64,000 bases of DNA from an uncultured Planctomycetales bacterium. Lineage in GTDB: Bacteria > Omnitrophota > Gorgyraeia > Zapsychrales > Fredricksoniimonadaceae. Each line of letters starts with the position of its first letter. Positions within the stretch are counted from its first letter, which is position 1. The stretch spans positions 7,805 to 71,804 of the forward strand of contig CAZOXU010000003.1 of NCBI GenBank assembly GCA_964583975.1, written 5' to 3'. Under the pieces are notes generated by a model. The model was not told the origin of the DNA. It made no database searches and worked only from the letters and a program-made list of their open reading frames with translations. A program made the translations under genes and the position numbers. Shown here one piece after another: positions 4,938 through 59,400 of this stretch.

Positions 4938-4950
4938 GGCGTCTCTATTT

Positions 4951-5024
4951 GGGGTTGTAGCTCAGTTTGGGAGAGCGCCTGCATGGCATGCAGGAGGTCA
5001 GGGGTTCAATCCCCCTCAACTCCA
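4951..5024 (+). tRNA. tRNA-Ala (anticodon GGC)
   Basis: GGGGTTGTAGCTCAGTTTGGGAGAGCGCCTGCATGGCATGCAGGAGGTCAGGGGTTCAATCCCCCTCAACTCCA. Anticodon loop ATGGCAT as in E. coli alaW/X. G3:U70 pair present. CCA not encoded. Confidence 0.85.
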
Positions 5025-5034
5025 TTCTACTTCG

Positions 5035-5420: not shown

Positions 5421-5507
5421 GCTGGGATGGCGGAACTGGTATACGCGCTGGTCTCAAAAACCAGTAGCTTCACGGCTGTGAGGGTTCGATTCCCTCTCCC
5501 AGCACCA
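5421..5507 (+). tRNA. tRNA-Leu (anticodon CAA), type II with long variable arm, CCA encoded
   Basis: GCTGGGATGGCGGAACTGGTATACGCGCTGGTCTCAAAAACCAGTAGCTTCACGGCTGTGAGGGTTCGATTCCCTCTCCCAGCACCA. D-arm GGCGGAA..GGTA.ACGC typical of Leu. Anticodon loop CTCAAAA. Confidence 0.8.
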
Positions 5508-5552
5508 ATAACCTTGGTTTTCATCTAAAAAAATGTTACACTTTTCTTAGAT

Positions 5553-9383: not shown

Positions 9384-10895
9384 ATGCTTGCCAAATCTTT
9401 TAGTTTTGCCCTGGCCGGGCTCGAGGCCTACTGCGTTACCATTGAAACCGACATAACCGATGGTCTTCCCCTAGTAACCATCGTTGGCCTGCCTGATAAT
9501 GCAGTCCGAGAAAGCCGCGAGCGAGTCAGGCTGGCCATTAAAAACAGCTCCTTGGGCTTTCCATCAGGACACCTAACCATCAATCTTGCCCCAGCTGATA
9601 TTAAAAAAGAAGGTCCGTCGTTTGATGTGGCCATTGCCTTAAGCGTGCTAGCCAGCAATGAACAAATCTCCTATGAATCCTTACGCCATTACGTTTTTTT
9701 AGGTGAGCTAGCACTCGATGGCAGCATCCGACCTATCAACGGAGCCCTTCCTATTGCCTTGGCCTGTGATCCTAAAGTATTTAAAGGTCTGATCGTTCCT
9801 GCAGCCAATGCCAAGGAAGCAGCCCTGGCTAATACGGTTAATATCTATGCTGCTAATTACCTTAAAGAAATTGTCCATTTTCTTTCTAACCCAGAGAGTA
9901 TAAAGCCAACCCCCTGCGAAGGAATAAATCTGCTTAATGAAAAAAGACGCTATCCCTTGGACTTTGCTGATGTCAAAGGCCAAATCCATGTCAAACGCGG
10001 TCTCGAAATTGCCGCGGCAGGCGGACACAACGTGCTAATGATCGGGCCACCAGGAAGCGGCAAAACCATGTTAGCCAAGCGCGTGCCCTCCATCTTACCT
10101 GATATGACCTTAAGTGAGGCCCTGGACATTACCAAGATCTATTCGGTGATGGGGCTTAACACCAAAGGCATTGTCACGGCTCGACCTTTTCGCTCGCCTC
10201 ATCACACAGCCTCGGATATTGCCTTGATTGGTGGCGGTTCAAACCCCAAACCCGGTGAAGTCAGCCTAGCCCATAACGGTGTTTTGTTTCTTGATGAATT
10301 AGGTGAATTCTCCAGGCATGTGCTGGAAGTTCTTCGCCAGCCCTTGGAAGATCATTGGGTAACCGTCTCCCGAGCCAGTCGAACGCTTCGCTTTCCAGCC
10401 GGCTTCATGCTGATTGCCGCAATGAACCCGTGTTTTTGTGGGTGGCTCATGAGCTCCCAGAGACGATGTCAATGCTCGCCAAACGATATCCAAAAATATC
10501 TCGCCAAAATTTCTGGCCCCATGCTTGATCGCATTGACCTACATCTACAAGTGCCAGGCCTTAAAACGCATGAGATGCTCCATGCTCCTTTAACTGAAAG
10601 TTCTAGTGAGATTAAACAACGGACAGCTAAGGCACGAAAGTTACAACAACGGCGTTTTAACAACACTAACGCCCACATGAATTCCGAACAATTAAAACAA
10701 TATTGTGCGCTTGATGAAGCTGCTCGCGAGCTCCTTAAAAAAGCGATTGATACGCTAGGTCTTTCGGCCCGCGCCCACGATAAGATTCTAAGAGTGGCTC
10801 GAACAATTGCGGATTTAGCAGACAGAGAAAACATCCAGCCCGAACATATTGCAGAGGCGATCAGCTATCGGGCGTTGGATAGGATACATCAATGA
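9384..10895 (+). CDS. comM: YifB/ComM family Mg-chelatase-like AAA+ ATPase
   Basis: 503 aa. N-terminal Lon-like domain. Walker A GPPGSGKT. C-terminal helical domain. Confidence 0.85.
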   Translation: MLAKSFSFALAGLEAYCVTIETDITDGLPLVTIVGLPDNAVRESRERVRLAIKNSSLGFPSGHLTINLAPADIKKEGPSFDVAIALSVLASNEQISYESLRHYVFLGELALDGSIRPINGALPIALACDPKVFKGLIVPAANAKEAALANTVNIYAANYLKEIVHFLSNPESIKPTPCEGINLLNEKRRYPLDFADVKGQIHVKRGLEIAAAGGHNVLMIGPPGSGKTMLAKRVPSILPDMTLSEALDITKIYSVMGLNTKGIVTARPFRSPHHTASDIALIGGGSNPKPGEVSLAHNGVLFLDELGEFSRHVLEVLRQPLEDHWVTVSRASRTLRFPAGFMLIAAMNPCFCGWLMSSQRRCQCSPNDIQKYLAKISGPMLDRIDLHLQVPGLKTHEMLHAPLTESSSEIKQRTAKARKLQQRRFNNTNAHMNSEQLKQYCALDEAARELLKKAIDTLGLSARAHDKILRVARTIADLADRENIQPEHIAEAISYRALDRIHQ

Positions 10896-11353
10896 GAAAA
10901 CCTTCTCGGAAGAATTTAAGATTGAAAAATTGGGATTATTCTTCGGCAGGATATTATTTTGTAACCATATGCACACAAAATCGTTTTCCATATTTAAAAA
11001 ATCCTGACATAAACAATATACTCCATCAAACGTGGTGTGAATTAAAACAGAAATATGACAATATTGTGTTGGATGAATTTATCATCCTGCCCAATCATAT
11101 TCATGGAATCATTATCATCGTAGGGGCGGACCTATGTGTCCGCCCACAATTAGGGTCGACCCCTACGTTGGGCGAAATGATCCGTTGGTTCAAAACAATG
11201 ACCACAAATTATTTTATTCACGGGGTAAATAAATCTGGATGGAAACCATTCTTGGGTAGATTATGGCAACGCAATTATTACGAACATATCATCCGTAATG
11301 AACGATCTCTTTACGACATGCGACGATATATCACACATAATCATATGGAATAA
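10892..11353 (+). CDS. REP-associated tyrosine transposase (RAYT; IS200/IS605-like Y1 HUH transposase)
   Basis: 153 aa. HUH motif LPNHIHGII. Catalytic Tyr region WQRNYYEHIIRN. ATG overlaps comM stop (ATGA). Confidence 0.7.
   Translation: MRKPSRKNLRLKNWDYSSAGYYFVTICTQNRFPYLKNPDINNILHQTWCELKQKYDNIVLDEFIILPNHIHGIIIIVGADLCVRPQLGSTPTLGEMIRWFKTMTTNYFIHGVNKSGWKPFLGRLWQRNYYEHIIRNERSLYDMRRYITHNHME
11120..11166. repeat. REP-like palindrome GTAGGGGCGGAC..GTCCGCCC..GGGTCGACCCCTAC embedded in-frame in the RAYT gene
   Basis: Perfect outer inverted repeat GTAGGGG/CCCCTAC and inner GGGCGGAC/GTCCGCCC. Encodes VGADLCVRPQLGSTPT, inserted between the HUH motif and the downstream conserved helix. Confidence 0.6.
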
Positions 11354-18072: not shown

Positions 18073-18135
18073 GTAGGGGCCGGCCTCTGTGCCTGCCCTT
18101 TTGATTATTGGGCAACCACGGAGGGTTGCCCCTAC
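18073..18135. repeat. REP doublet (REPIN-like): GTAGGGGCCGGCCTCTGTGCCTGCCC - spacer - GGGCAACCACGGAGGGTTGCCCCTAC
   Basis: Two REP units in inverted orientation upstream of mutS. Confidence 0.65.
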
Positions 18136-18183
18136 ATTTTTCTAATTTACCTAAATTAATTTCTATGTTATAAAGATGCGCTT

Positions 18184-20700
18184 ATGGAAACAACCCCCAT
18201 GCTTAAGCAGTACCATGAAATCAAATCCCGACATAAAGATGCGATCGTTTTTTTTCGTCTAGGTGATTTTTATGAAATGTTCTTTGATGATGCCAAGGAT
18301 GCTTCGTCTATTCTTGATCTGGTCTTAACTTCTCGCGGGCAGGATGCCAGTCGAGTTCCCATGTGTGGCATACCTTATCATGCCTGCGAAGGGTATATCT
18401 CCAAACTGATCAAGGCTGGCCGTAAAATTGCCATCTGTGAGCAAGTGGAAGACCCTGCTGTGGCCAAGGGCATTGTCCGACGCGATGTGATTCGGGTCAT
18501 TTCAGCTGGCACATATCTAGATGAAGAAACCCGGACCCGCTACCTGCTTTCTCTATATATAGGCAAAAATGGGCTAGGCTTTAGCTTTTGCGATAATACC
18601 AGTGGCGTTCTCTGGGCCAATGAAGTAACTAATTCCAGGATCGCCTTAGAATCAATCTCTAAACTGGCCATTTACGAATGTGTTTATCCAGCAGCCCAGG
18701 AAGAACAGATTCGTTCTTTATTTGCCCACCCTCTTTTGAAACTTAAGAATGTTACCCTAAGCCCCATGGAAGACTGGCATTTTCATTTTGATGCCGCTAA
18801 CCAAAATCTCTGCGCCCACTTTGAAGTATTAAATCTCAATGGTTTTGGATTAGAAAATAAGAATTCGGCCATTGCCTGCGCCGGTGCTCTCTTAGAATAC
18901 TTACGCACAGCCAACAAAACTCCTTTGAAACATATTCACCGCATGGCTCTTTACACGGCCGATGATTATGTTTTTATCTCTCCTGCAGCACACTATGGAC
19001 TAGAACTTGAAGAAGTTTTAAAGACCTTGGATCTAACGCAGACATCTATGGGGCATCGCTTATTTCGATTTTGGATGTTTCATCCGCTTAAGAATATCCA
19101 GGCGATTGCTGATCGTCAAAGCGCCATCCAAACACTCAATAAGGCAAAAACCCGTAATAAAATCAACGAATGCTTGCAAAATATGCCTGATTTGGAAAAA
19201 GCACTATCAAGAATCAGCTGTGGCTGCTGCAGCATCAAAGATATCTTAAACCTACGTAATGGACTTTTACGTGGGCCGCTAATCCAAGAAAACCTGACAC
19301 CCATGAATCATCCTCTGTTAATGGTGCATGATTTAACGGCCTTACGCGATCTTTTAACACGCACCATCGATCCTGAAACTCCTTTAGCCAAACCTGAAGG
19401 AAAAATCATTCTACCGGGCATCGATAAAGAATTAGATGAATTACGCAATCTACAAGATAACAGCCGCACCTGGCTAGCTAATTATCAGGCTGAAGAAATT
19501 CGACGCACAGGGATCAATTCTTTAAAAGTTGGTTTTAATAATGTCTTTGGCTATTACCTGGAAATTACCAAGACCCATCAAAAGTCTGCCCCGGCTAATT
19601 ACATCCGTAAACAAACCCTGGCAAATGCTGAACGCTATATCACCCCTGAACTTAAAGAATATGAGGAGAAATTCCTTACAGCCCAGGATAAAATTTTAAG
19701 TATTGAACGGCGAATCCTTAATTCCATAGAAAAAGCCATTCTTTTAGAAGTCAATCAGCTACATGCCTATGCTTCACAAATTGCTCACCTGGACTGTCTG
19801 TTGTCTCTTTGCACTTTGAGTCAACGGCCAGGTTATGTCTTTGCTCAAGTCAATGATTCCATGACCATTGATATCCGAGATGGTCGACATCCAGTGGTGG
19901 AAAAGACCGTAACTGAAAATTTTATTGCCAATGACACCTTGCTCGATGATACCGATAATCATTTGATCATCTTAACCGGTCCTAATATGGCTGGCAAAAG
20001 TACCTACATTCGCCAGACGGCCATTTTAGTTCTAATGGCTCAGATGGGCGCACCGATTCCGGCTGGCTCGGCCACGATTGGTTTGGTTGATAAAATCTTC
20101 ACCCGCATCGGCGCTCATGATGATATTGCCAAAAACCAAAGCACATTCATGGTGGAAATGACCGAGGCTGCTGATATTCTCAATAATCTGACAGCCCGCT
20201 CGCTAGTAATTCTTGATGAAATCGGACGTGGAACTTCCACCAGCGATGGGCTCTCCTTGGCCTGGGCCTTGGCAGAACATTTCCAGAAGCAAAAAGCCCG
20301 CACGTTATTTGCCACCCATTTTCATGAACTAGTGGCTCTAGCCGATAGACTCCCTGGAATTAAAAATTACAACGTGGCTGTGAAAGAATGGCGAGATCAA
20401 ATTATATTTATGCATAAGATTGTGGCTGGTGGCTGTGATGATTCCTACGGAATTTATGTGGCTAAACTGGCTGGTATTCCAGAAAGCGTGATCAAGCGTT
20501 CAAAAGCAATCTTAAGTGAATTAGAACTTGGGAGCACAACGCCAATAAAACGGCATGAACGACAGATTGATCTGTTTACACCTCATTCTGATCCTGTATT
20601 GGAAGATTTGCGCTCGGTTGTGGAAGCCATTGATATCAACAATATAACACCGCTAGATGCGTTAAAGAAATTGGATGAGATAAAACGCAAATTAACGTAG
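18184..20700 (+). CDS. mutS: DNA mismatch repair protein MutS
   Basis: 838 aa. N-terminal mismatch-binding domain. Walker A GPNMAGKST. Walker B/DE, C-terminal HTH. Stop codon TAG forms the first bases of the downstream REP. Confidence 0.9.
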   Translation: METTPMLKQYHEIKSRHKDAIVFFRLGDFYEMFFDDAKDASSILDLVLTSRGQDASRVPMCGIPYHACEGYISKLIKAGRKIAICEQVEDPAVAKGIVRRDVIRVISAGTYLDEETRTRYLLSLYIGKNGLGFSFCDNTSGVLWANEVTNSRIALESISKLAIYECVYPAAQEEQIRSLFAHPLLKLKNVTLSPMEDWHFHFDAANQNLCAHFEVLNLNGFGLENKNSAIACAGALLEYLRTANKTPLKHIHRMALYTADDYVFISPAAHYGLELEEVLKTLDLTQTSMGHRLFRFWMFHPLKNIQAIADRQSAIQTLNKAKTRNKINECLQNMPDLEKALSRISCGCCSIKDILNLRNGLLRGPLIQENLTPMNHPLLMVHDLTALRDLLTRTIDPETPLAKPEGKIILPGIDKELDELRNLQDNSRTWLANYQAEEIRRTGINSLKVGFNNVFGYYLEITKTHQKSAPANYIRKQTLANAERYITPELKEYEEKFLTAQDKILSIERRILNSIEKAILLEVNQLHAYASQIAHLDCLLSLCTLSQRPGYVFAQVNDSMTIDIRDGRHPVVEKTVTENFIANDTLLDDTDNHLIILTGPNMAGKSTYIRQTAILVLMAQMGAPIPAGSATIGLVDKIFTRIGAHDDIAKNQSTFMVEMTEAADILNNLTARSLVILDEIGRGTSTSDGLSLAWALAEHFQKQKARTLFATHFHELVALADRLPGIKNYNVAVKEWRDQIIFMHKIVAGGCDDSYGIYVAKLAGIPESVIKRSKAILSELELGSTTPIKRHERQIDLFTPHSDPVLEDLRSVVEAIDINNITPLDALKKLDEIKRKLT

Positions 20701-20759
20701 GGGCAACCCCCCGTGGTTGCCCAATAATTAAAAGGGCAGACACAGGGGCCTGCCCCTAC
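20697..20759. repeat. REP doublet, reverse-complement arrangement of the upstream doublet
   Basis: GTAGGGGCAACCCCCCGTGGTTGCCC - spacer - GGGCAGACACAGGGGCCTGCCCCTAC. Together with 18073..18135 forms an inverted pair bracketing mutS. Confidence 0.65.
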
Positions 20760-41400: not shown

Positions 41401-44400
41401 ACCCTGTCTTACGTAAAAATCTACCTATTCGTGTAGCTTGTCCTTTTCGTGGGCCTTTTTGAATCAAGGTAATAAATTTGTATATCTTAAATTTTTTCCC
41501 CAACAAACCTACTCGTCTTTGGGTAAAGAGGATCTTCTTTTCTTCGGAAAATACGAGGATGGAAACAGCAACAACAATCATCAATGGAAGTATAAAAATA
41601 AAAGCTATGCTACCAACGATTAAATCAAACGCCCGCATATTCAAAGGTTGCAAGTGTTCTAAAAACCAACGCCTAGCTTGTTTTAATTGAGAGAATGCGA
41701 AGAAATATAAATAAAGCAAACCTGCCCCTACTCCATAAGCCAAGATATCAAACCAATCAAAAACCATTCCCATATCATTTGGTTCACGAAAAGACGTCAG
41801 AGGCATTAAAACTTCAATGAGGCTACTTATAAATAGTGAAAGCAAGGTTATTTGTACTGCAGAAAGTTTTACATCAAGAATCCAATCCCACAAATATATC
41901 ACCATAGCAAGTAAGAACGGTAAAGAAACATCTGGCAATGAACCATTGAGGATGCCATCTACTTGTGTAATTTCAAAATTACTCTGGCGAAAATTCATAC
42001 CCCAAGCAGAGAGCCACAAGAATAATCCTGACAACAAGAAAAGTTCAATGAATTTATTCAGCCAATCTTTTCTGTGCGGATGCGCATATCTTGCAATAAT
42101 TCCCCAAAGAATCACAATTCCCAAAATTGCCCAAGTGGAACCCTCAAGATCAATGACATAAAAATATTCCTGAGCCAAAGCATTGCTTAAGATAAATCCT
42201 AGCAAGAGCATTAAACTTACGATTCCTACAAGAAAAACAACCGAAACAGATCCGACTTCAGCACAGCGATCTGTCGACTGAAGCCTGGCAATTGTCCTTT
42301 TAATCCACCAAACTCTTAGAAATGCCGGAGGATGTGATGTTTGCAAAATGTTTTCTTTGAAATAATTTCCTATCGTATCGGTTACATCGTAACCTGCTTC
42401 ATAAGCATAGGTAGCTCCCCAATAATCCGCCCTTAACTCCTTAAACCAACAGACCAACAATTCAGCGAAAACGATAGGAATCAATAAAACAATAGGGATC
42501 CCTAAATACCAAGCTATCATTGAAGCTAACGGAACGAGGAAAGGAAACGGAATAAGTGCTTGAGACATGTTACGAACAATTTTAAAGAATCTGTTTTCTT
42601 GCAAAGCATTGTTTCTAAAAGCGGTTTCTCTGAGATGAGCAATTTCATGGCCAAAAACAAAAGCATGATCTTTCTCACCCCTTTGCTTCATGTCATCTTG
42701 ATCCAGGGTAATTAATGCAGGTATACAATAATAAATCTGACTTCGTTGACCATAGCCTAATACGAATGGTACTTCTTCCAGGGGTTGATACGCCTTTGCT
42801 GCAGCATGTACGTTATCAAATATTCTTAAGATTGTTTGATCCTCAATGACTTCATATGTAGATGGGTTCTTAGATTTGAATGGATAAAAGAAACATCGTG
42901 CAGCGGCATACACAGCCATGCCGACCATGATTAAATCGTCAACCACAGAAAGCAGAACTATTTGGAAGCCCATGGCGATCCCTAATGACATGGATGGGAT
43001 AAGACGAATGTCTATCTTATTTTTATAGTACCTCTGTGTAAGCTTCGTCAGCAAAAATATCACAATACCGTAGGCAAACACATAAAAAATAAAATGAGGA
43101 TGGCGTTCTTGAAATGTTTGAGAAGATTTAAAGGTAGCCTTTATTGCAGACCACCGATTTACTAAATGCGCAGGAACATTTATGAGAAATTCTTCAACTT
43201 GCGGTTTGATTTTAACGATGAGATCTTTGAAGCTATTTAATTGTTGCTGAGTAATATCAGCATTCAATTTATTAATATACTGCGCTAGAAATGTTCTTAT
43301 CGCATCGCTATGCGCGAAACCACCAAACCCAACCGAAGCTTTCCTTCTAACATCAAAGAATGGATTGTTAGGATAAATTTCTTCTGTTGGCCAATTTAAA
43401 GGAAACTTTTTAAAGAACTCATCCCAAGTTAACCGTAATAAACCAACCCACTCATATGTTTGCTCTTCCTTTACTCTAAAAACAGGGGACCCGCTATCAC
43501 CACAAAACACAACCAGCGTTGAGAAATAAACTAATTTATGATATGTTTCATCGGTATGAGCTTGATCGAGAACAAATCCTTCAGGTAATTGTTTTTCTTC
43601 TTTGGCCATGACCCGACCATAACGTCCTTCCAAAAGAGAATCAGAAGGAATATGGATCCTACCCCACACTAAATTATTGGATATTAAATCAAACTCATAC
43701 GACTTAGATCTCAAATTCTTGATGGCTAGGGCAGCATCTGAATCCGCGATTTGATAAAATAAAACGATCGGATCTTCATCTTTAACCTTAGGTGCCAAGG
43801 AAAATGTGATACCCTTTGGCATAGGAACATCGTCTTGTGTTCGTAATAAAGACAGATCTCCTTGGGCTTTATCAAACTCATTAACTACTACAAACGTATG
43901 CCAGTCGTTCTTATCCGTACTGCCACGTTTTTTCTGCTGAACTAATTTAAAATCCTTCTCACATTTAGAGCAGACAACATGATACTCCGTTAGAAAAAGA
44001 TTATCAGCTATTTGAACGGCCCTACCTATTGAATATTCTGAATCAACATCATAAAGCAGCCCGCTAATATCAGCTTGGGTAAGTGAGTCTTGAGAATTTA
44101 AGATGCTTTGTAAATCTCGCAAATGGGATTGTTTTTGTCTAAGAGTTAAAGTAATCGCAGGTGCAGCAGCACTTTCAATCTGTGCTGATCTTCCCATCAT
44201 TGGTGGATGCTGAGCAAAAGCTGGAGCTGAAGCAAAACAAAGAACGGTCAAAACCCCTAGCCAGGCTTGACGCAAAGCATTATTGGTAGTACCCTTAATT
44301 ATATGATTAAACCATCTGCAGGTTACGTCTCTAATATCAAAAAAGCCATTGCTAAACTTCCCCCGAAAGAACGTGTTCAATTGATTGACTCTTTGCAAAG

Positions 44401-47400
44401 AGAAAGTTGGGCTCAAAGATTTAAGCAGCTTCTCAAACGCATCAATGCCCGCTTTGCCAAACATCCCCTGTCTGCTAAAGAGCTCAATAAAATTATTGAA
44501 GACGCTCGGGAAGAATATCATGCTAAAGGCAGTCGTTGATACTAATGTCCTCGTTAGTTCGCTTCTAAAAGGTACGACTGCTAGAAATATCATCGCCACA
44601 CTCACCCTCAATAAATTTACTCTTGTACTCAGCGAAGATATTTTTGAAGAGATTGTATTTACCTTACGAAAACCTCGATTAGCAGAATTTATTCCTGAAT
44701 CAGATATAATTGTGCTGTTTGCGTTACTGCACCAACGTAGTTTATTTGTTAAACCGAGCAACATTGTTAACATTTGCAGAGACAAGAAAGATAATAAGTT
44801 CCTGTCTTGCGCTTTAGCGGCTAAAGCTGACGTTATCGTCAGCGGAGATAAAGATCTGCTCGTGCTTAATCCCTTCGAAGGTATTGCAATTATTTCTCCT
44901 ACAGAATTTCTGATCATGCTGTACAAGGTTTGAATCCGAACTATCGCTTTTTTATTCCATGGCGTCCAGTCTTTGAGTGGAACAATGAAGGTTCCCAGAA
45001 ATGGACCAAACAAACGCCAAAGGTAAGCTTCTTCATATAAGAAAACAACCTGGCCTGACCAATTCAAATGAACAGCTTTGGGAGGAATTGCCCCTAAATT
45101 TTGTTTAAACCGTATAGGAGAAACAAGACAGAAGAATATAAAATGCACCATATATAAGCCAAAAAATATAAAAGCAAAATGTCCTACTATCGGTAAATAA
45201 AAATTAGTGAGGAATAAAACCATTAGTGATGGCAAGGCAATTATAAGACTTGCAAATTTATTGATCATTAAAAGAGCAAAAATCCAAGTGTCGTTATATT
45301 TAGATGGATTTTGCTTAAGATATTCCCCCCATGAAAGCGATCTAGTAGGCACATTTCTCTTCTCCCAAATCATCCAATAGACTGTTAACAGCGATAATGC
45401 CATTCCCAATGTAGTAAAGCCCACCGTGCTTCCACTAGCTACCAAAGCCGCTGATCCAATAATTCCTATTGGCAGAGCTGCGAATGTAAAACCACCTTGG
45501 GTTGATTGAGGGGTTGGATCTTTTTGAAGGTTTTGGACAGTCGGTCTTTGGGTCCATTGTTTTAATTTATTCCAGACAAGTGAAGCTCTAGCCTGCCGCA
45601 AGGCACCTTCCACCCTTTCTTTTAAATGTTCCAGCAACAGTCTGACATAAAGCTCCTCAGGGTGTTGAACAGCAGCTAATTTCACAGTATTAATCAAATA
45701 ATCTTCAACCACGCTCGAAGCATCGATCTTACCGATCAGAAGATTTGCTTCATCTAAACGGCGCAAAACCTTGCCCACTAAAAGTTCTCTGTTCTCTGGA
45801 TTTTGATCTACTTCCTCTAAGCGGCGCTGGGCGACATCAAGCAATTGCTCAGCCCAAGTTAAACGATTTTCATCAGAAGATCGTATCTCCTGCCGAGCTA
45901 AATCAAGCAAGGCCCCATGTTGCAAAGCAATCCCAGCATTGGCAATTTTTACCGAGTTGATATTGGCGCTTAATAAATGACTTGGTGTAATGAAAGAAAT
46001 GTCTGCTTTTCTAGTGAAACGTGTGTAATTCGAATATGAAAAAACACTAACTGGAAGATCAAGATCGTAAACGCCTTTAGGTTCTTTCATTGCTCCATCA
46101 ACAACAATGACTAGATCTAAATCCGGAGGGAATTCACGGAAACCATAAATATAGCTTCCCAAAACATAAATACTCCACACTTTCACATTAGGACCGATAT
46201 GTTTATAAGCCATGTCTTGAGCCCATTTGACAAGCACATCAGAATTAATACTATTAAGTCTCTCCACAAAAATAGTCTTGGCCCCGTCACTAAATGGGCC
46301 GTAAATAGTTTGGTTGATCTGTTGCAAATATTCCGGGGGCATCAAACGTTTAAAACGAGGATCTAATACCATCGGTTTAAATTGCCTTTGCCGTCGAGAT
46401 ATCCAAGTTAATTCAGATAACTGCGCAAGTGTCAAGTCATAGCGCCTGGCCAACAAACTTCGTACTTTTTGTACAGAAAGTCCACTATTACCCGATGCCT
46501 GCTCCCGACCCACTAAAATGGCAGCGACACTACGCAAATCTCCTTCAGTCAGCCAGAAAATCAGTTCATCATTAATTCTTGTGGTTAGGGCTGGATTATC
46601 TAATGTTGTTCCAGCTAAACCATGAAGAAGTGAAATAGCTATTTCACCTGGTGATTTACGACGAGATCGATAAAGAAATCCTAGAACTTTATCAAGATCT
46701 CTTTCAAGAAACGATTTTGGAAAATCTAAATACGCTGGGAATGTAAGAAATTCTTTGGTGTGCGAAGAGTTGCGCAAAAATTCTTTGATCTTACGTGTGA
46801 TGCGGACAATCCAAAACCAGTGTCTAGAGAATTCAAAACGGGATGAGTTATCTTCAATCAATTTAAACTTTGCTGTTCTCCAACCAATCCAATGCGCCAA
46901 CCAACTCACAAGACTTCCAATACGATGTTGGAAAATAATGCTTAAGAAGATTGCAAGAATGAGCACGGCATCAACTAATCGTGTGGATATTCCCAGAAAA
47001 GGTGCCGACAGCCCACTGAAGAATCCACCAATACCAAGGACCGTCAAAATCTTAGAAACAACTCTATTGTGAGAATCCTGGGAATCTGCTTTTTGCAAAA
47101 ATTCACTCATACTATCATCGGTGCGGATCCATATATCTAAAGAATCAACACCTTCGGTCAGTACGAATGTTACACTTACATTATTGTGTTCTTCATTAAT
47201 ATAATAGTTGACCCATGGCGGGATGTAACTCTCTCCATTGATAAGAATCACTGGCAGACCTTTAGGATCAGAACGAGGTTGATCTTCTTTTACTACCTGC
47301 CCCACATAACTTATTTTAAGGTCTAAATGATGCCTATCTTTTCTATCTATAACAAACAGATTAAGTTCGCCGTCTTTGTCTAAATAAAACACCCCTTCAT

Positions 47401-50400
47401 TATATGGATTGATGGCACACCCAATGGTTTGCCGTTTCTCTAAATGAATCGTGGTCCTAGCTAAACCTTTAGAAGAAGCCTGTAATTTGATTGTCTTAAG
47501 ATGCGGCTTGGGACGCTGTAAAATTCTTTGCTGCAACATTCCCGATTCAAAATCAATAATAGAACCTCGTCCCCACAAATAGGACAAAGTAATTTCCCAA
47601 TAAATAAATAATAAGTTGTGTGCATAAACGATAGCCCAGACATACTTGGTACACCCCGTAAAGAAATCTACGAAGAATAAAAAGTTTAATACAAGCACAA
47701 TAGAGGCATTGGCCATTACTCCCACAAGCGCTTTAAGACCATGGACCTTCCAGGGCATACCATGAAATAAACCAACCCCGATTCGCTTCCAACCATAATC
47801 ACTGCGTCGCCCATTTTCTGGCCCCACAACAAACTGTGCTAAATGATTTGGAATAAGGGCTGCTATAAATAAAATCTGTATGGTAAAAATTTGTAGGGAA
47901 CTTGAATTTCCTAACATCATAGGTAGATTAGCGACCATGGAGGTAGCTTGTTTCCTATTGCGTCGAGTCTTCACTGAAAACCAAGCATACACAACTAAGA
48001 AAATAAGCCATCCCCAAATCCATACTTCAGCCCAATTCCTTACTAACCAATCCCATAAGTTACTTCCCCATCCAGCTGATGCCAAAACGGTTATACCAAC
48101 GATCCCCAAAGGTAGGGCTGCAAATATAAAAACATGCATTTTAAGATAATATCTCAATAAATATAGGCTTAATGCTGCAACGCTAAGCAGGATAATGCTA
48201 GTATTGCTCCAGAAATTATTGCCATCTGCTTCAAGCAATCCTACCCAGGCCTTCTCAGGATTAGGAACTTGCTTAATATCTATATATTGGCTTTTTTCTT
48301 TGGAACTCAGTGCGGCGTACTCTTGTGGGGCAATTAAATGATAAATAAATTGACCATCCTCTGTTTTAAATTCAGTAAGCTTGACGTATTTGAGTTGATC
48401 TTTTAAACCACTTTGACTCTCCATCCACTGAATAACTGCTTGTATCTGTTCAACATGCTGATTAAGAGCGTGCACAAATTTACGCGCACCCATTTTATTT
48501 AAAATCTCATGTCGTTTTTGGTTTTGGTTCTCTAGCCCAAAGACCGTAACGTACCTATCTACGCACATGGGTAAAGATAAACGTGGAGTTAAAGCTATAA
48601 ACCTAGCAGGATCCATCGACAAAGACCTGGCTGCATCCGCATTTAACGGCAGGATTATTGATATTTGGCTTGCCCTTCTTGGCTCGCTTACAATATGAAG
48701 CTTTCCTTGATATAAAAACTCCGCAACCATTCGGGCCGCTTGCAAACCAGTTCCAGCACCATAAGCAAAACCCTGAGCCATTTGTCCTCTAAAGCCATAA
48801 TTCCCTAAACTCAATTTTTCATTCTGGTCAATCCCAATGCCAGTATCTGCAACTGTAATAATTACAATTCCATCATGTTTTTGTAAGCTAATGGCAACTG
48901 TTGAATTTACTAAAGAATATTTAATGGCATTGTGAATCACTTCTCCAATTACAACGTCCTTTAAATTAAGTTCGCCATCTTTAGATTTGATAAAAATCTT
49001 CTGATCAGGAAGATCCATCTTTAAAGTGATGTTTTTGCTTTTAGCAAAGCCTCCTAGATACGTCCCTTGAACCAATTGCATAATCAATTCATTTAAATCC
49101 AAGAGGTTTTCTGTAATATCGCAAGCCGTGCTAGTGGCTGTGACTTTGGACTGATTAAAATTAGCGCCTGACACTAGTTTTTCTGGTTCTTCACTCTTTA
49201 CAAACGGCTTAAACGATAAATACTTCATAGCCCAGAATGTCAAGACAGCCGAAGCGATATGGACCCAGAAATTAATGTATAAACTTTCACCTTCAAGGAT
49301 TCGAGTGCGGAAATTGTCCTTGGTCTTACCCATCTCAACCAAATTAGCCAAGATCCACAGGAAGCTAGCAACGCTCAAACGGATCATCAGTGAACGTCGT
49401 TTTGATTGCTTATCCGTTCCATTAAGGTTTAAATCTTTGCCCTTACGCATAAACCCGAACACAGATATAAGATAGAAATATCCGGTAAGGGCTGGAATAC
49501 TTAAAATCCTTAAATACTGTGCATTAAACTGACTCCACAAGCTTCCATCAGCATCCATACGTTTAAAATAACGGAGGAAACTGTTATTAATGAGATCCCA
49601 ATTACCAACGATATCTTTGCGAATAATAACAAGAATGGTTAAGGCTATAGCAGAAACGAAAGAAATTACCGTTGGCCAATAAATAAACGGACGTGTTTTT
49701 ATCAAAGACTGCTTCTGATAGAACTGTTTATAAAATACATACCCACCTAAGACAACAGCATCCAAAGCCAACATGACAAACATCAGATTCTCATAAATAA
49801 ACGGCCTAGCAATGGTGGATATTGGGGTCACCAACCACGTTATTGTAGTTAGAATGCCCAGCAATGCCATTCGTAGAGCCCAAGGCATCTTTAAAATTTG
49901 CGGTTCTTTGTAATCTACAGATTTTTGTGCTAGAAACACACTACGAATACGGCGAACATGTGGAGCATCAATTTCCTCACGCTTAACTTCCCGATGGATC
50001 GCCTGAATATTTTCAAAACCAATCTTCTTTAGCATTCCTGGAATTCGTCTGGCAGATTGACGATTGGTGCGGCTTACCCAACGTGGCGGAAGAATATTGG
50101 TGATAATAATCCATCCGCCGGGCTTCAATTCATTAAACGCATGGCGATAAGCCGCTCTTACTCTTGACCAACGTTCAAACCAAATGTATTTAAGCCAATT
50201 AAAAAGCTCTACTACAGGCCCTTCAATAGAATGATATAGGTTTGTATTAATGAGCTGCAACCATGACAGTGGATCATTCCATCGTGGCTGTGCATTCCAA
50301 GCTACAAAATCACTGACTCGATGAAACACAACAGCATTACTGCCTGGATATTCTTCTTTAGGAAACCAACGTTTTTGGGTAGCTACATCAATACCAGTCC

Positions 50401-53400
50401 ATCCATACTGGATTTCAGTATCATCAGTACCAAATAATCCATCGTCCCATCTTTCCGTTCTATACTCAAATGCCACATGACGATGCTCGCTAGCCCCTGC
50501 AGCCTTCAAACCTCGGTAAGGCGAACCATTTTGCCCTGCTCCAACTTCCGTGACTACCCCGCCATTGATCTGAATCTTCTGTCCAATCAATTCAAACAGA
50601 GCATCTTCATGTTCATTTCCACTGACACCTGTTGAAAATTCACCTAATAGCTCCTTTGCTTGAGCCAATTCTTCTTTACTCCATCCTTGATCTAAATCTG
50701 GACGAAGTTTGAAATCTTCAATTTGTCTAATGAGATACAAATCATTAAATAAATGAATGCCAATAACAATCAGAGCAGTAAGGCTAAAAGGTTGGGTGAT
50801 TAAAATATACGGTAATAATGGCAGGGCAAAACGAAGTGCAGAGATTATGTCATTCCCGAATGCTTTTATCGGGAATCTAGTGCCTGGATCCCCGATTAAG
50901 ACTTTCGGGGATGACAATAAGTTTCCTCTCTTCTCTATATAGACATGCCAATAACCGAGGCCTAAAGCAACCAGCGCAAAGGTTGCATAGGATAAGCCCC
51001 ATGGCAATGCTGCATTTAACCCAAGGGCGATAGCTACTAACGCTGGTGCCTCTAAGAACAAGACACTTAACAATCCAATGACTGGTTGTTGAATATAAAG
51101 ATACATTAAACTTGATGGCGCTTGGGGGGCCTCTCGAACAACAGTCTGTGCCGGAAGGTGGGCTGGCGCTGGTTTTTCTGCTTTAAAAACACTTTTAATA
51201 TATTTCAACACCCACATCAACGCTGTTGCAACAGCAATTCTCTTTTGCTTCTTAAACATTCTTAAGAATATTGCTGCTGATAACATGAGTGTTCGAATCA
51301 AGGTTTTTGGCATAATGACCAGAAACTTCAACTGACCCCAGACTCCTTTAAAATCTCCACCCTCTGTTATAAATTTCACAAGGCGCTTGAATTCTCTTGG
51401 ATAAAATTCTTTGGCTAATGACCAAATTAAGGAAGGTTGATTATTAAAATCTGCTTTGGTATCAGACAATTCATCAGAAATTTGTAAAAATAACATGAAA
51501 TCGTTTCCAAATTCGACGTCCTGTACTTTGTCCTGTGGAAAACGACCTGCAAAAATATTCTCTAATTCCAAAAGACCACCAAGACGCGTTTTCGCTTTTA
51601 GAATCTCCCACATTTTCTCTACAGTTGGATATAATCCGCTTTCTCGCTCTAGAATGTACGACTCAAATAATTCTTGTGAGACTCTAAGCAAAATATCGCG
51701 TAACTTCTTTGTATCAATTTCGTCCTGCGGCATTTGCACTAAAATCTGGTTGGCCTTGTTTTCAAAATCTTCAACAATCTCTGCTCGATCTCGTTTATCA
51801 TCTTTTGCAACCAATGGAGCTTCGATTTCCTGTAATTGCCTTTGAGTTACACCCTTACTTATTAAAAGACTAGATGGAATCACTGGGAATCGACAAAAAA
51901 GCCGAGACTCAGCAAGAATACCCTTCACTTCATCCAAAGATAATTTATGTCCGAATGTGTCTAAAACTACATCTCCTGTGCGCACATATTGGGTCCAAAG
52001 AATCATCAGTAAATCAAATCTAGACTGCTTCACTATATTTAAATCAACACTCAGCATTTTTACCGCAATATATCCAAAAATACGTGTGGTTGAGTTTACC
52101 TTAATTCCATAACCGCTCCCGTCTTGGGTATCTCTTTTACCATTCATCCAGATTTCTCTAATAAGTTTGAGAAAACTAAATCGACGATCTGAATTTTTCT
52201 GTATTAACCAAAACATGTAAACAAAGATACTAATTACTAAGAAGGCTATTGCGCCCCATACCCAATACCCTGAAAGAACAACCCATGGATAAGCTAACCA
52301 TACCCCAAATACCAAAATACCAACAGTTGTAAGGAATGCTGATAAGACATGCCCACTTTGCGCATTGTTTAACTCAACCCCATCGTTTGTTGCTGTCAAA
52401 TCATGGGCAGGTTGTTCTGGGGTTTCTGGCTTCTTGAGAATTAAGATTGTTGATTCTTTTATTAAGAATTTATACCCGAATTCCTTTTGGATAATTAATA
52501 GAGCCCGCTCTAACTGAGCAATCATCCGGATGACATAAAATTTATCAACCAGTTCCTGAAGTATTTTGTGTTTCTTTATTTCTAATTCTATGACCCCATG
52601 CTCTAAATATGGTAGAAGCACTTCATAAATATCATGCTTTTCTAATTCCGCTATCGACCCAGGTGCTTTTAAGCTTCCCTTTTTACGACGATCGGAAATC
52701 CATTCTTTAATATTAGCGATTTCCTCAATATCAAATAAAAGCGAGGGAGGTTCTTTCTTTGCTTTGGCAGGTCTACCGCCAAGTAAAGTTAAATTTAATT
52801 TCAAAGACTTTGCCCGAGAAAAGATAGCAGTAGGAGTAACACCAAAATATTTCGCTAATTGTGAAGCAGTGGGTGGTTGTTCTTTCGTACTAAATAATTT
52901 ATGTGCCTTACGGAATTTAGATACGGTCAACGTTTTTCTTCCAGGGCTTAACTTTAACCGCAATTGTTTTGCTTTGTTAATTACTTGCTTACCAGTGATC
53001 TTTAAAACTGTAGCCAATTCAAAAGCCGTAGGAGCTTTTGCGGATTTCATTAGTTTCTGATAGGTCTCTCTAAATTGTTTTTTCGACACCTTTTCAGTCT
53101 CAGACCTTAGTTTTAATCGAAGAGCATCCGCACGCTTCATAACGGCTCGGTACTTCAAACCAGTAGCTTTGGCTAATTCTCTTCCCGTTGGCAACCGAGC
53201 TCCATCTATCAAACTCCTATAAATAGCGCGGAATTGTTTCTTAGGCAAAACTTTACGCATCGGAGTCAGTTTTAATTTCAAGTCTTTGCTTCGTTGGCGC
53301 ACAACGTCTGGGGACAATTTAAGCTTCCTAGCCAATTCATCTTTATTTGGTTGCTTGCCTTGGCTTGATAAGTCTTTATAGGCAGCAATAATATCCTTAT

Positions 53401-56400
53401 TACTTATGACCTGTTTTTTGTCTCTTACAGGAAGCTGCAATTCATTTAGTCTTTTATTAACAGCTTGGCGGCTAATTGATAACTTATTCATTAGATCTCT
53501 TTTTGTTGGCAATCTTTCTCCAACGCGTAACTCTTGATAGGCTGAAATAAAAACTGATTTACTGACTAGGTAACGTTTAAATAATCTCTTAAATACTAAT
53601 AAATTATGCCGTACATGTACTTCGATGGCCGCCTCTAAGGCTAATTCTCGACTTTTTGTCTTCTGGAATACTTTTTGGAAGGCACGGTTTGTGCGGGTAA
53701 CCAAATCACGTAGTTGTTTTTTATCTGCTGCGGTCAAATCTTCAACAACAAGATTTTTCGGATCGATTTTCTTGTCCTTATGCAACGTTACTAGCGCATC
53801 TGGTGGCGGCAAATCAGTAGATTGACGAATGAATCTCTCTTCCTCCCTGGCGGCTTGGAAAATAAAATCTCTCACAGTACCTGTTTTTATAGCTTTAAGT
53901 AATCGGGGCAAGAATTCAATATTCATACCCGCAACAGCTGACTCACTCTTTAAAATTTCTTTTCTCTTCGCAAGAAGCTCTTTAAGCAATTGAAGTCTAG
54001 CAAGTCTGTTTTTTGCAGCAATTCTACTAGCTAAATCTGCTTGCGCTTGCCTTGCCATCTGACGTTCATGTTCTTCTTGAAGCTTTTGTGCCTTCTGCAA
54101 TTGGCGTTCAATGCGTTTAGATTCTTTTTCAATGGCAGAATCCTTTCTGGACTTTCTTTCCTTAGAATGCTTCTGCTGTGCTCTAGCCATTCGTCTGGCT
54201 TCTTTTTCTTGTGCGTCTTGCATTTTTTGTTGTTCTTTTTCTTTGCGCTTGGCTTCTTTTTGTTGTGCCTTCAGTATTTCTTGCTGTTGTTTTGCTAACT
54301 GACGAGCTTGTTTTTCTTGGGCAAGTCGTTCATTGCGGGCAATTGAAATTACCGATTTTGTGTGCATTTGCGAAGGAATATTTTGGGTTAAATTGATCAA
54401 TAGCCTCTTACCCTCGACATCTTTAATCGGATTACCCTCTGCATCAGCAATGAAAATAGCCCAGGTTCCAACGCCATTAACAAAACGCACATCAACTATG
54501 GAATCAGGATAATCACCAACGATCACTTCTATTCCAGCGAATTTAAGTCTTCTTCCTGTTAACTTTCGGTTAGGATAAATAAAATCTTTTAGAGTTTCTC
54601 TTAGATTAGTTCTGCCAATATCCGCTACCATTTCAACCAGTTCCCCTAAAACAAATGAATCAGGGGTTGTTGCAGGCTTTGGAGCATAAACAGGGTTTAA
54701 CTCTATGGCTCTGCCTGTGCTCAATGATACGGTTGTTTTAAATAATAGGCGCTTAGGTGTGACTTTAAGAATATTTTTAACAAGCACCCGGCCATTATTT
54801 TCACCAAAAAAGGCGATCGATTCTTTGCCGCCAAAAGTCAAATACCCAGCCCCATTCAATTTCTGACCATAAAATTCCATGTGCTTGGTTACCAAATGGT
54901 ATTCCTCATCAACAACGTAATTAAGATAGCAGGAAACAAATTTAGCTTTCTTGTTATCCCAAACCAAAGCAAAGCGTTCATTTAAATCAGATGTTAATGA
55001 CCAAATTTTAATAACTAAGCCATCTCTAAAATAAATAAGGACACGTTGATTTCTATAAGCTTCCAGGCGTCCCCAAGACTTTTGTTCTTGACGATTGGGC
55101 ATTGAACCATCTACCAACATGCGACCGCCGCCAAAACGTAGATTACCAATAGGATCAAGCTGCGTCTCCAATACGACATCACCAAAGCTCAAGAGCTTCT
55201 CACGTTGCAAGCTTCCAGCATAGACATGCAGCACCTTACCTGAGTAAGCTTGCATGATCCTAAAGAACGGATAAACCTTACCGGTTTTGGTCATCTTAAT
55301 TCTAACGGGTAAACCTTCAGACATTTCAAGTTCATAATTCTCGTTGCCATGCGCTGTAAACTTCCCTAAATATTTTCCTACGATAAGCTTACCGCTGAGC
55401 GTCAAACGTCCAGTAATGATCACATGCCCAAGCGCTTTAAGTTGATGCTCGGTTGGATTAGACGGTAAATTTCCTAAAGCAATCTTCTTTAATGAATTCT
55501 TCGTAGGCGTAACCCAAGGAGAGTTCTTGTTATGTCGAAGGGCCATTGCCTTCTTGATATCTTCCTCAAGAGCTTGATATTGAGGCAGATTGCCCGATAG
55601 ATCCTCAACCTTTAGCTTCTTAGCTGCCATCCCCATCATGCCCTTACCTTCTCGCCAAACGTTTAAGTTATGTTTCAAATGCACGATAATAGCGGCCAAA
55701 TAACCCCCAACCCAGAAACCTTTCAATCGCCCTATTTTATATGCTTCTGTTGCACGAGCGGCTAAGTCTGTAAGTTGCGTTAAACATTCGTTTTGTTCTG
55801 TGGCAGATAATTCATCGACTTTAACCCAACCTCTCTCAAAAATAAGCACTTCAGAATCATGGCCCTGTATAAATTTCAAATCTCCATTAATTGTATGTGC
55901 GCGCAACTCCTCTACTACGGCCGCCATCATCCAAATAAGAATACCGAGATTGTATCGACCAACGCCAACTCTTGATGCTAAATTGTATAACCACTTCCAG
56001 CGTGACTGCAGACCAGCGACATGACGTGGGCCATAATGCATCTTTGTCTGTGTATTAAATCTCAACCCTGCAATACTCATTAAAAAGAACGTTATTGCCA
56101 TCAAAATTAGGGATAGCGCCCTATTATTAGACGTAAATGTCATTCCCGAATGCTTTTGTCGGTAATCTAGAACCTGAGTGACTGGATCCCCGATAGAAAC
56201 TTTCGGGGATGACAATAATAGGGCGCTGTCCCCTATTTTTTGAATTACTTTCCCAATCGGTTTAGGATTATGTGTCCGATAAAAATTACGCAAACGTTCT
56301 ACGGTCCACTGGTAAGGAGATTGGATGAGCTCTACATCGATATTGGTTTTGAGTAATTGCAATAAACCTGGTCCAACTATATCATTATCAAAAATCAATA

Positions 56401-59400
56401 ATACCTCTATATGTCCAGCAGCTCCTTCAACTTCTACTGCAAATCTTTTATAGCTCACTTGGGCTTGCTCATCTTGTGCGATCTTAAATTCCCTGGCGTC
56501 TTGAGGGTCATTAATTCCTTGCCTTAATAAAGCGTATCGCTGCTCTTTTCCTTCTTGATCCTTGATGACTAAATAAGGTCTAACGCCAATCGGCTTGATC
56601 TTTATGAAATCAAATAAGAATCCTTCCCAAACTCCTTCGGCATAAGCATAGAATTTCTGGTCAAAAATGGTCTTTAGAATTCCTTCCTCGGGCATATTCT
56701 TACACGTAATAACCACTAATACTTCGTGCCCCTTGTTATCACCAACACGATACATGCTTTGATTGTCTGCAGTCTCTACCATCTCCAATAAACCCCCACT
56801 ATTTTCGACAATGAACATGCCCACCTTGCTGAAATATTGGAAGTTTAATTCATCCATTAGTTGACGGAATCTTGGATATTTCTTAGCATCATCCCCCACC
56901 AAAATATCTATTAGTTCACCGAGCTTTTCAGCCAAATCAACAGAACTTTCCTTAGCTAAATCAATTAAATCATCACGCAATTTTTGGACTGTTGCCAAAT
57001 CTTCATTGACTTTACTTATTTGCTTGGAAAGTTCCTCTTGGGCAGCCAGCGATGCTTGCACGGCTTTTTCATAATCTTCTCCCGCATGGCCTTCGGCTGC
57101 CAGATGCTTGGCCTTATCTAATTTCTTATGTGCTTCTTTTTCTAATTCTTTAGCTTTGGTGAAACTTACTGAGGGGTTTTTAAACATTCGGAAATCTTTT
57201 ACCAACTTATCAACGAGTTTGACTACTTGAGCAGCTCGCTCATGGTAGGCAATGATGTCTTTGATTTCTGTGGAATCATAAGGAACCCGGCCAAAACTCA
57301 AACGGCGGGAAATGGCCTCAGGTGCTGAGCAAGCACTTAAGAAAAATGCAAAAAATAGGCTAATCAATGCCATCAGACTCCAAGGCATTGATCCAGATTG
57401 TGCTGATGCTTGGGCTTCTTTAACAGTATGGGCTTTTAATTTTTGCCACACCATGCTCGCACGAGTGAAGACCAGAGCAATTTTTAAATCTTGATAATAC
57501 GCTTCTAAGATTTCACGGATTTGTTCATCAGAATAATATCCATCTAAATATCGAATGGTTTCACTGAAATAGAGATGTTTTATAGCTGGTAGAAGCAAAG
57601 CTGAAGATGGGTCAATGCCTATGAGAAGAAGGTTTGCTTCCATCATCCGACGAGCTGATTTCGAACGCAAGGTCAAAAAATCACCTTCATCGCTTGTTGG
57701 GTTTTCTTTCGTGATACTCATAGCACTCTTCGCATCCTTAAGAAGCTCCGCTGCCGTGACCACATTATTATCAGAATGTTTGCGAATTCCCGTCATCGGC
57801 CAATCTCGCAGACCGTCTGCTTTTAAGAAAACACCAACATTAGCGATGATGGTTAAATGATGGGTTTTCTTTGCCAATGACTCAGCAGTCATAAAAAGAA
57901 TGTCCGCACGAGATGTATGCAAGGCATACTCACCATTAAAAATTCTCCTGTTTAATGGCATAATTCTTACTTTTAGGGTGTCTTGTAAATTAATCCCTTC
58001 AACAATGACTTCAATATCAAGATCTGCTGGAGATTGTTTAAACCCATAAACAAAACTTCCTACCAAAATAATACTAACGATACGGCCTTGGCGATTGGTA
58101 TGTTTATACAGCTCTTGGGTCAACATTTCTCTTAAAGCTTCTACATCAATCATTTCAACGCGTTTAACAAATTCAGCAATTTGTTGATTGTCCATTCTTC
58201 CATAAATCGTACGTTGTCTGATTTGCTCTGAATAAGAGGGCGACGGTCCAGCTTCTGCAAATTCTTCTAATAAGCGAACATATTCTAATTGGGTCAGTTT
58301 ACTAAAGGCCGGAGATTTAACCCATTTCATTAATGAACGAATTTCGTCACGGCGTTTCTTGTTAACGTTTTTATCATCAGATTTTACAAGTTGAACGTAA
58401 TAATCTTGCACCATAGGCACATAAGATTGGGCTCCTTCCCCTTGTGATGCTCCGGCGATGATAACCGCCCAGGCACGCCAATTATTCATTCGTAACCAAG
58501 CTATTAATTCTTTCTTGATTTGACCATTGATTGATTCATCTTCAACAAAGCTATAGCTTAAGCGGAAAAGGTCTTGCAACCTTGCATCGGTAGCTAAAAA
58601 TCCGAATCGACGGGCACGTTGCAATTTTTTAAGGAGTTTAGGAATCTCTTTAACTTTGAAAGCTTGTAGATTTTCAGGATATTTTGCTCCACCCAAGAAT
58701 AATCTTGTTTCAGATGATAAATGACGCCAATTATCAAGTAGTTGTTTGAGCTTGTGCACTATTCCAGTTATTTGGTAAATAGTAATTATGACAACCGTCA
58801 GTATCCCAATGTCAATTAATGCATAAAGGACACCTTTCATTCCTTCTGCCTTTTGCAAGATAAGGAAAAATGAACTTTCAAGTAGTGTGGCTGCTAGAAA
58901 CAATAGTACTGCTGGGACAGAAATCATGGCGCGAACCTTAGGTAAACTAAAATACGGTCGTTCTTCGCGAAGCAGAATGTCGATTTGCTCATCAGGATTA
59001 ACTAGTACTACCGTCACCTTATTTTTTGGTTCCAGATATAGCTGAAATAGGTTTGGAATATGTTCCCCTTTCACCTGAGCAACGGGAACATAATCACCTG
59101 TTGTCCCCTGATTACTTGGCACAGTAAAATCAATTCTTCGTCCTTCATGGGGAATGACAAATGGCGTCTCAGTATCAAATTTAATACCCTCACCTAAATC
59201 GCGATATTCCTGCATCACACATAATTGTCCTGCTTGATTAAAATAGACAATTACGTCATTTTTGTGGTTAATCAAACGAATTCTCAGGGTTTCTTTCCTA
59301 TTGAGATTAATGCGATAAATACTCGCTGGAAATTCCTGAACGCGCACCTGAAGGGCATCGAAAGTTAATGCAGCACTTGATTTTCTTCTAGGATGTCCTG

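Follow-up and report, generated by a model that had tools for sequence, protein, structure and literature searches.

Palindromic hairpin doublets resembling Neisseria transformation sequences lie in frame within a giant open reading frame of an uncultured bacterium

A 64,000-nucleotide stretch of contig CAZOXU010000003.1 (assembly GCA_964583975.1), referred to here as the window, comes from an uncultured bacterium placed among the Omnitrophota and contains a giant open reading frame (ORF) on its minus strand. Two short palindromes, elements A and B, lie within this ORF without closing it. The locus raises the question of what kind of DNA these elements are and how they came to be read as protein. 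A sequence-only reading of the window had called them similar to miniature inverted-repeat transposable elements (MITEs). Comparison with other genomes leads to a better description, in which each is a doublet of inverted hairpins that resemble the Neisseria Transformation Sequence (NTS) and the related SRM repeats.

Both of the palindromic elements that had been reported, at roughly 90% identity, are present, and their ends could be refined to the positions given in Table 1. A 20-mer common to A and B occurs exactly twice in the window (0 expected from 100 shuffles). The two elements are 90% identical in each half, and aside from point changes, B differs from A by 8 additional bases (AGAACCTG) in the central loop, the sole indel. 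Each element consists of an inverted pair of ~33-nt hairpin units, one forward on each DNA strand, and the unit may be written as T-GTC-ATYCCCGA-(9-nt loop)-TCGGGRAT-C-YRG. Three of the four halves form an 8-bp stem as single-stranded DNA (ssDNA), with energies of -6.9 kcal/mol for the left half of A (z = -3.9), -7.7 kcal/mol for the right half of A and -7.9 kcal/mol for the right half of B. In the left half of B, the stem is mutated and no such fold is formed (-2.1 kcal/mol, z = -0.9). A profile made from 172 units of other genomes matched exactly these four half-sites in the window and nothing else, with nhmmer E-values of 7.8e-12 and 2.5e-11 for the left and right halves of A and 1.7e-7 and 9.6e-12 for those of B.

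As had been noted, B is nested in a further inverted repeat, the arms of which are 26 nt long and 88% complementary. The suggested RNA folding check was also performed and demonstrated that the elements are far more stable than shuffled sequences (A, z = -7.1 and -6.3; B together with its outer repeat, z = -11.5 and -8.5). DNA folding of the whole elements gave z-scores of -6.4 and -5.0 against shuffles.

Table 1. Positions of the two elements, their parts, the host ORF and other features in the window
Feature	Position	Strand	Details
Host ORF	23411-63970	-	13,519 aa, stop-free; A = aa 4352-4374, B = aa 2586-2611
Element A, palindromic doublet	50848-50916		69 nt = 23 codons; core TGTCA...TGACA; ends TGTCATTCCCGAA...TTCGGGGATGACA; minus-strand peptide (L)SSPKVLIGDPGTRFPIKAFGND
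A left half, NTS/SRM-like hairpin unit	50848..50880	+	TGTC-ATTCCCGA-ATGCTTTTA-TCGGGAAT-CTAG
A right half, unit, C/G stem variant	50884..50917	-	TGTC-ATCCCCGA-AAGTCTTAA-TCGGGGAT-CCAG
Element B, doublet core	56138-56214		77 nt; minus-strand peptide (L)SSPKVSIGDPVTQVLDYRQKHSGMT
B left half, decayed unit	56138..56171	+	TCGGTAAT replaces TCGGGAAT, stem broken
B right half, intact unit	56182..56215	-	TGTC-ATCCCCGA-AAGTTTCTA-TCGGGGAT-CCAG
Left outer arm of B	56103..56128		Small hairpin (TAGGG..CCCTA), then T-run on minus strand; terminator-like call on - strand
Right outer arm of B	56214..56239		Small hairpin, then TTTTT on + strand; terminator-like call
GIY-YIG gene, single domain	5110-5361	+	83 aa; PF01541 2.7e-13
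RAYT-like gene	10892-11353		PF01797 8e-7; NF047646 1.7e-18, below its cut-off
GTAG-headed REP (GTAGGGGCNGNCC..TGTG..GCCC...CCCCTAC)	11120-11145, 18073-18098, 20734-20759		Unrelated to A/B
PIN toxin, antisense in host ORF	44526-44933	+	PF13470 5.5e-21; TIGR00305 3.4e-26
Putative antitoxin, small ORF upstream of PIN toxin, overlapping	about 44300-44539	+	

Both elements are in frame in the giant ORF, as had been proposed, and are read as LLSSPKVLIGDPGT... and LLSSPKVSIGDPVT.... The further claim that the two encode the same peptide holds for the first 14 residues (LLSSPKV.IGDP.T) but not for the second halves. Because of the 8-nt central indel, these are read in different frames, yielding RFPIKAFGNDI in A and QVLDYRQKHSGMTF in B, a difference that speaks against a protein motif. 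No relationship was seen between the flanks of A and those of B, or between either set and the remainder of the ORF; thus, A and B are not products of a segmental duplication, and the ORF contains no internal paralogue that could serve as a surrogate empty site.

Relatives of the elements were identified in a species-representative genome collection with a strict two-end pattern (GTCATYCCCGAA, 35-65 nt, TTCGGGRATGAC). At least 116 loci were found in about 50 genomes from many phyla, and all of the family counts that follow are among the loci listed from this search. The host labels include Acidobacteriota, Bacteroidota, Omnitrophota, Nitrospirota, Schekmanbacteria, Desulfuromonadales/Geobacter, Elusimicrobiota, Planctomycetota, Leptospiraceae, Calditrichota and several Gamma- and Betaproteobacteria. 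Five metagenome-assembled genomes (MAGs) hold 15, 10, 7, 6 and 6 loci, with one Schekmanbacteria MAG at 15, one deltaproteobacterial MAG at 10 and one Omnitrophica MAG at 6. Family copies are mostly intergenic, and the candidate in-ORF copies of loci L001, L037, L067 and L101 were rejected since they are actually located just upstream of gene starts. With this multicopy, cross-phylum and mostly intergenic distribution, the elements are repeat DNA and not a protein motif, as the sequence-only reading had suspected. Solo half-units exist beside the doublets. A metagenome scan with a 33-nt sub-family pattern identified seven contigs, mostly with solo units and none in long ORFs, and a scan of 2.9 million viral contigs produced a single match. 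The family is therefore not phage-borne. The outer arms of B have no additional copy in the 64-kb window, and extended palindromic flanks of this type are not characteristic of the family, being present in 3 of 113 copies.

The interior of the family is conserved even though the search pattern left it unconstrained. A cytosine follows CGGGRAT in 166 of 190 inner ends from other genomes, with tails of CCAG, CTGG or CTAG. The variable stem base of GTCATYCCCG and its partner within the same half were T-A in 121 units, C-G in 105 and another combination in 6. A Watson-Crick pair is retained in 226 of the 232 units via T-A / C-G exchange. When the same base was compared across the long hairpin of 117 elements, the combinations were T-G (56), C-A (35), T-A (23) and C-G (3), with no others. 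Since the covariation occurs within a half and not across the long hairpin, the conserved structure is the small hairpin on each strand. Doublets with one T/A-stem and one C/G-stem half make up 91 of 117 (78%) and thus the long hairpin nearly always has a T-G or C-A mismatch at this position. The mixed pairing may reflect the avoidance of perfect long palindromes or the existence of two distinct unit types.

The hairpin units may be considered in terms of the NTS, CGTCATTCCCGCGMAVGCGGGAATCYRG (Chenal et al., Nat Commun 2025, PMC11893778). In Neisseria, the 94-aa GIY-YIG nuclease SsnA binds the NTS hairpin solely as ssDNA and cuts a few bases upstream; the GTC is important for cleavage, and SsnA binding depends most strongly on the C that follows the palindrome (PMC11893778). 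Across phyla, such motifs usually stand on both sides of ssn genes, in an NTS-ssnA-NTS layout, the insertion sequence (IS)-like nature of which was raised as an untested hypothesis (PMC11893778). The same study lists Rickettsia with the genomes that contain the most SRM elements and mentions RAYT/REP (PMC11893778). The NTS, the dRS3 within it and the present units are alike in a 5' (C/T)GTC, in stem arms of the form ATTCCCG...CGGGAAT and in a 3' C-YRG. Within the window, TGTCAT is found in four of four halves and corresponds to the GTC(W)(Y) flank that stands right before the SRM palindrome. The cytosine 3' of the palindrome and the YRG that follows it are likewise present in all four halves (tails AATCTAG and GATCCAG). 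Oriented units, and hundreds of copies in many phyla, are further points in common.

The comparison also extends to neighbouring genes. GIY-YIG genes of 94-97 aa were found in three of the fetched loci: L033 (Thiotrichaceae), L079 (Omnitrophica) and L050. As in the NTS/SRM systems, the small single-domain gene is flanked on both sides by units in L033 (5495-6294) and L079 (4599-5105), and in L050 it lies 2 kb from a unit. The GIY-YIG frame of L079 appears broken, with an ORF of 56 aa, yet tblastn aligns 93 aa. The two groups of repeats differ in the spacing of the CCCG-CGGG core, which is 11 nt in 184 of 232 units as opposed to 6 in NTS/SRM. The present units also differ in that they occur mainly as inverted doublets, usually with halves of unlike stem type, and in that those of A and B are read as protein.

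The evidence for a probable insertion of A comes from a homologue of the giant protein. An exhaustive HMMER search with aa 4100-4720 identified P0012 and P0001. P0012 can be aligned to the giant protein on either side of A (E = 2e-18, 40% identity), and the alignment is interrupted once, by a 21-aa gap exactly over the element peptide; the hydrophobic segments to either side of A are conserved. The comparison of orthologues that had been suggested thus revealed a relative without the peptide. Removal of the 69 nt in silico leaves HVYIEKRGNLLISALRFALPLLPY, compared to HVFIVKTLHLPYSKRVLSYTLPLVPY in P0012, with a loop of 12 aa versus 14 aa. Judging from this alignment, the best interpretation of A is that 23 codons were inserted into a loop. 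An 84-kb metagenome scaffold (L118), in which no hairpin unit is present, carries P0012 as a 1002-aa ORF between two others of 7523 aa and at least 3454 aa. The apparent start of P0012 comes after a 10-N scaffold gap (L118 9968-9977), and the other break (12985-13009) is a 25-nt overlap that has the look of a frameshift; the true ORF may exceed 12,000 aa. A word-indexed search with aa 2350-4750 of the giant protein identified no homologue at 1e-5. A strain of 97.6% identity, present in the samples of ENA ERZ4216102, is represented by a metagenome contig (L119) that ends 97 nt short of A, and a metagenome scan with the back-translated A flank GYWHVYIEK returned 0 matches.

Elements that are read in frame are also found in other genomes. 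In a Ca. Omnitrophota locus (L106), a 26-aa in-frame element peptide is located in a linker of an acetolactate-synthase-like thiamine pyrophosphate (TPP) enzyme, and this insert is absent from all solved homologues in the PDB. A large orphan ORF of L008 contains an element flanked by two segments that are conserved with L027. In-frame elements were observed at different positions in L008 (3817-3882), L027 (603-671) and L078 (4690-4764), in ORFs of at least 1876, 574 and 1592 aa, respectively. These ORFs belong to different MAGs, are homologous around a GGFHT segment and are poorly annotated or unannotated in Pfam; they could represent additional giant genes in which such repeats accumulate. 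The same HMMER search returned P0005, which is homologous to the methyltransferase-like module located downstream of A and contains ...STVIPSSSTVIPAKAGIQ.... Since VIPAKAGIQ is the direct translation of the canonical NTS (GTCATTCCCGCGAAAGCGGGAATCCAG), P0005 presents another in-frame unit in the same protein family.

Rickettsia palindromic elements (RPE), reported by Ogata et al. in 2000, are short palindromic repeats that occur in frame in protein-coding genes. The parallel to these elements that had been drawn is apt given the in-frame relative in the acetolactate-synthase-like gene of L106. Both are in-frame short palindromic repeats tolerated as extra peptide, and both have homologues that lack the insert (A relative to P0012, and L106). 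RPE belong to other hosts and presumably to another sequence family, and RPE-1 is about twice as long.

We consider it probable that A and B are non-autonomous palindromic repeats of the NTS/SRM-like doublet type that would be nicked by an Ssn nuclease, multiply through ssDNA and reside in the giant protein as tolerated passengers. As in Neisseria, an exposed single strand would form the small hairpin. An Ssn-type GIY-YIG nuclease, presumably encoded elsewhere in the genome, would bind the hairpin and nick the DNA a few bases upstream, and the repeats would multiply by some ssDNA-dependent process. Elements A and B would be retained in the giant ORF since neither contains a stop in the frame that is used and, in the case of A, since the length is exactly 23 codons. 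Two of the six frames are open in A and two in B, and the mean for the family is about 1.7 of six; ORF-preserving insertions are therefore rare. Each copy would add just a Pro/Gly-rich loop of 23-26 residues beside hydrophobic segments, and such loops would be passengers rather than functional parts of the protein. Element B is presumed to share this origin.

Several observations weigh against the proposal of nuclease-dependent insertion. The mobility of NTS/SRM repeats has never been demonstrated and is a hypothesis only (PMC11893778). The SRM pattern, HGTCWYN(0-2)YYVSBRHN(0-5)WNVSBRGN(0-2)RNCYNB, had 0 matches on either strand of the window, which is explained by the longer loop and by an A where the pattern calls for B. 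No Ssn-type gene was recognised in the 64 kb, and the profile scan placed no unit next to the SLX1/UPF0213-like GIY-YIG gene that is present. The identity of P0012 to the giant protein is only 40%, and its gap coincides with a loop that is variable and bounded by hydrophobic segments. A word-indexed search with the flanks of B returned no homologue at 1e-3. Furthermore, the length of B is not a multiple of three, and a plain insertion without a target-site duplication (TSD) would shift the frame; the frame would be kept only if the boundaries or later indels compensate for the 77 nt. Finally, there are only two copies of the element within the window.

The GIY-YIG gene of the window encodes its sole nuclease of that superfamily, and the best PDB matches of the product are SLX1 and UPF0213. 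A weak similarity was observed to the element-associated GIY-YIG proteins of L033 and L050. NCBIfam has no Ssn-specific model. The gene lies between tRNA-like sequences, read by eye, at about 4950-5025 and 5425-5510, and short hairpins are found on both sides of it.

The nature of the giant ORF bears on a different explanation. It has a mosaic structure in which enzyme-like modules are combined with hydrophobic segments, and its domains include sigma-70 regions, HATPase_c, bacterial sugar transferase, PEMT/ICMT, peptidase M48, methyltransferases, NTP transferase and histidine phosphatase. Some modules are duplicated, for example aa 763-1329 with 3342-3859, and aa 5123-5260 with 10941-11065 and 12966-13099. 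The whole reads like a fused operon or polyprotein. Gene-like starts are also present: a signal near aa 2200 resembles a lipobox, and stretches near aa 6555 and 12290 resemble signal peptides. It is conceivable, if unlikely, that the ORF is a chain of once separate genes or modules and that the elements, B above all, are intergenic relics that became coding only via stop-free junctions. Besides the gene-like starts and the length of B, this explanation would account for the terminator-like arms on both strands around B, for a coding score of the giant frame that is near zero around both A and B, and for a family that is overwhelmingly intergenic elsewhere. An antisense toxin-antitoxin cassette at a module junction is likewise kept open. 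However, A is a whole number of codons within a protein segment that is conserved on both sides in P0012, and L106 shows that genuine intragenic in-frame copies exist. No relative with separate module genes was found, and the apparent boundary in L118 coincides with the 10-N scaffold gap.

The toxin-antitoxin cassette (44267-44933, plus strand) provides a second view of how the giant frame is maintained. Over the cassette, the giant frame has a negative coding score, yet no stop. When synonymous codons were resampled, the probability that the giant frame would stay open was P = 0.13 for the toxin and P = 0.0044 for the antitoxin. Thus, selection for continuity appears to act on the giant ORF, and the insertions that are visible appear to be those that passed this filter. 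A more speculative extension, which we regard as rather improbable, is that the giant ORF is a filter for stop-free insertions, hairpin doublets and the antisense cassette alike, and that the doublets as nuclease substrates become break or recombination points at which modules of the giant gene are shuffled or duplicated. If true, long-loop NTS/SRM doublets would shape the evolution of giant genes in an uncultured lineage.

A REPIN is composed of two inverted REP hairpins that form one longer hairpin, and the RAYT is a small partner enzyme that acts on ssDNA. In structural terms, the doublet is to NTS/SRM what the REPIN is to the REP. The two systems share an inverted hairpin doublet, solo units beside doublets and the lack of a TSD, as in RAYT/IS200 elements, and the presumed partner in each case is a small ssDNA-acting enzyme. 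Since a RAYT-like gene is located in the window, A and B might be REPINs that are mobilised by this IS200-like tyrosine transposase. This origin is very unlikely. The RAYT-like gene has a GTAG-headed REP of its own, with one copy in frame inside the gene and two that flank mutS, and the link that had been drawn from A and B to the REP inside the RAYT gene does not stand, as the two are separate families. A profile scan of the window identified no A/B-family unit near the RAYT gene. Among the 116 loci listed, there was no RAYT homologue, whereas the gene associated with the family, in three loci, is a small GIY-YIG nuclease.

A classical MITE would be a deletion derivative of an IS with a DDE transposase, moved in trans via its terminal inverted repeats. 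Elements A and B have the small size, the several copies per genome and the conserved 13-nt terminal inverted repeats (TGTCATYCCCGAA / TTCGGGRATGACA) that would be expected of such a derivative. We nevertheless give this origin little credence, and the MITE-like label was abandoned. No TSD was found in 113 copies for k = 2-8 at four boundary offsets, with counts equal to those of shuffled controls. Conservation and covariation run through the interior hairpins and are not confined to the ends, and half-units exist alone. About 0.8 Mb of flanking sequence, in which no systematic search was made, brought no full-length IS with such termini to notice.

The elements could instead be functional in cis, with hairpins that act as pause, termination, processing or recombination sites to subdivide the expression of a 40-kb gene. 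The sense-strand RNA hairpins are very stable (-34 to -59 kcal/mol), both elements are near module junctions beside hydrophobic segments, and the outer repeat of B is terminator-like. Such a role is highly improbable when set against the mostly intergenic location of the same elements in dozens of unrelated genomes and the existence of a homologous giant ORF without A. In addition, the covariation favors one small hairpin per DNA strand, and thus a DNA-level ligand rather than one transcript, and a search of positions 50000-57000 against Rfam (E up to 10) produced chance matches only, with no family for the element. The idea that the repeated peptide is a functional loop with incidental palindromy, to which the 14 shared residues might point, is already refuted by the frame difference in the second halves, by an identity that is palindromic and at the DNA level, by the intergenic location of the same DNA in many phyla and by P0012, which lacks the peptide.

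With these assignments, the NTS/SRM repeat class, the substrate of Ssn nucleases, gains a doublet form with a long loop, which is present in many uncultured phyla (among them Omnitrophota, Nitrospirota, Schekmanbacteria and Elusimicrobiota). NTS/SRM-like repeats are shown to be readable in frame, in the gene of a conserved enzyme as well as in a giant ORF, a behavior hitherto best known from Rickettsia. Pairs of filled and empty sites such as A and P0012 may serve as material for testing the repeat mobility that was left open in the Neisseria study (PMC11893778). With respect to annotation, predicted peptides such as VIPE..., SSPKV.IGDP and ...FGND represent repeat DNA rather than motifs. The host ORF, at more than 10,000 aa with many hydrophobic segments and divergent enzyme domains, is similar to the giant genes described in Omnitrophota (West-Roberts et al. 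2023, bioRxiv 10.1101/2023.11.21.568195; 2026 preprint 10.64898/2026.06.07.730766), and relatives of the elements are present in several Omnitrophota MAGs. Neither 10.1101/2023.11.21.568195 nor 10.64898/2026.06.07.730766 mentions palindromes or hairpins in giant genes.

Two other sets of repeats were observed in the window. The mutS gene is bracketed by two inverted 66-nt copies of the GTAG-headed REP (18073-18138 and 20694-20759) that are 91% complementary. A 12-nt tandem repeat of six copies (15275-15361) is located in a 924-aa beta-helix/TIG ORF (15065-17839).

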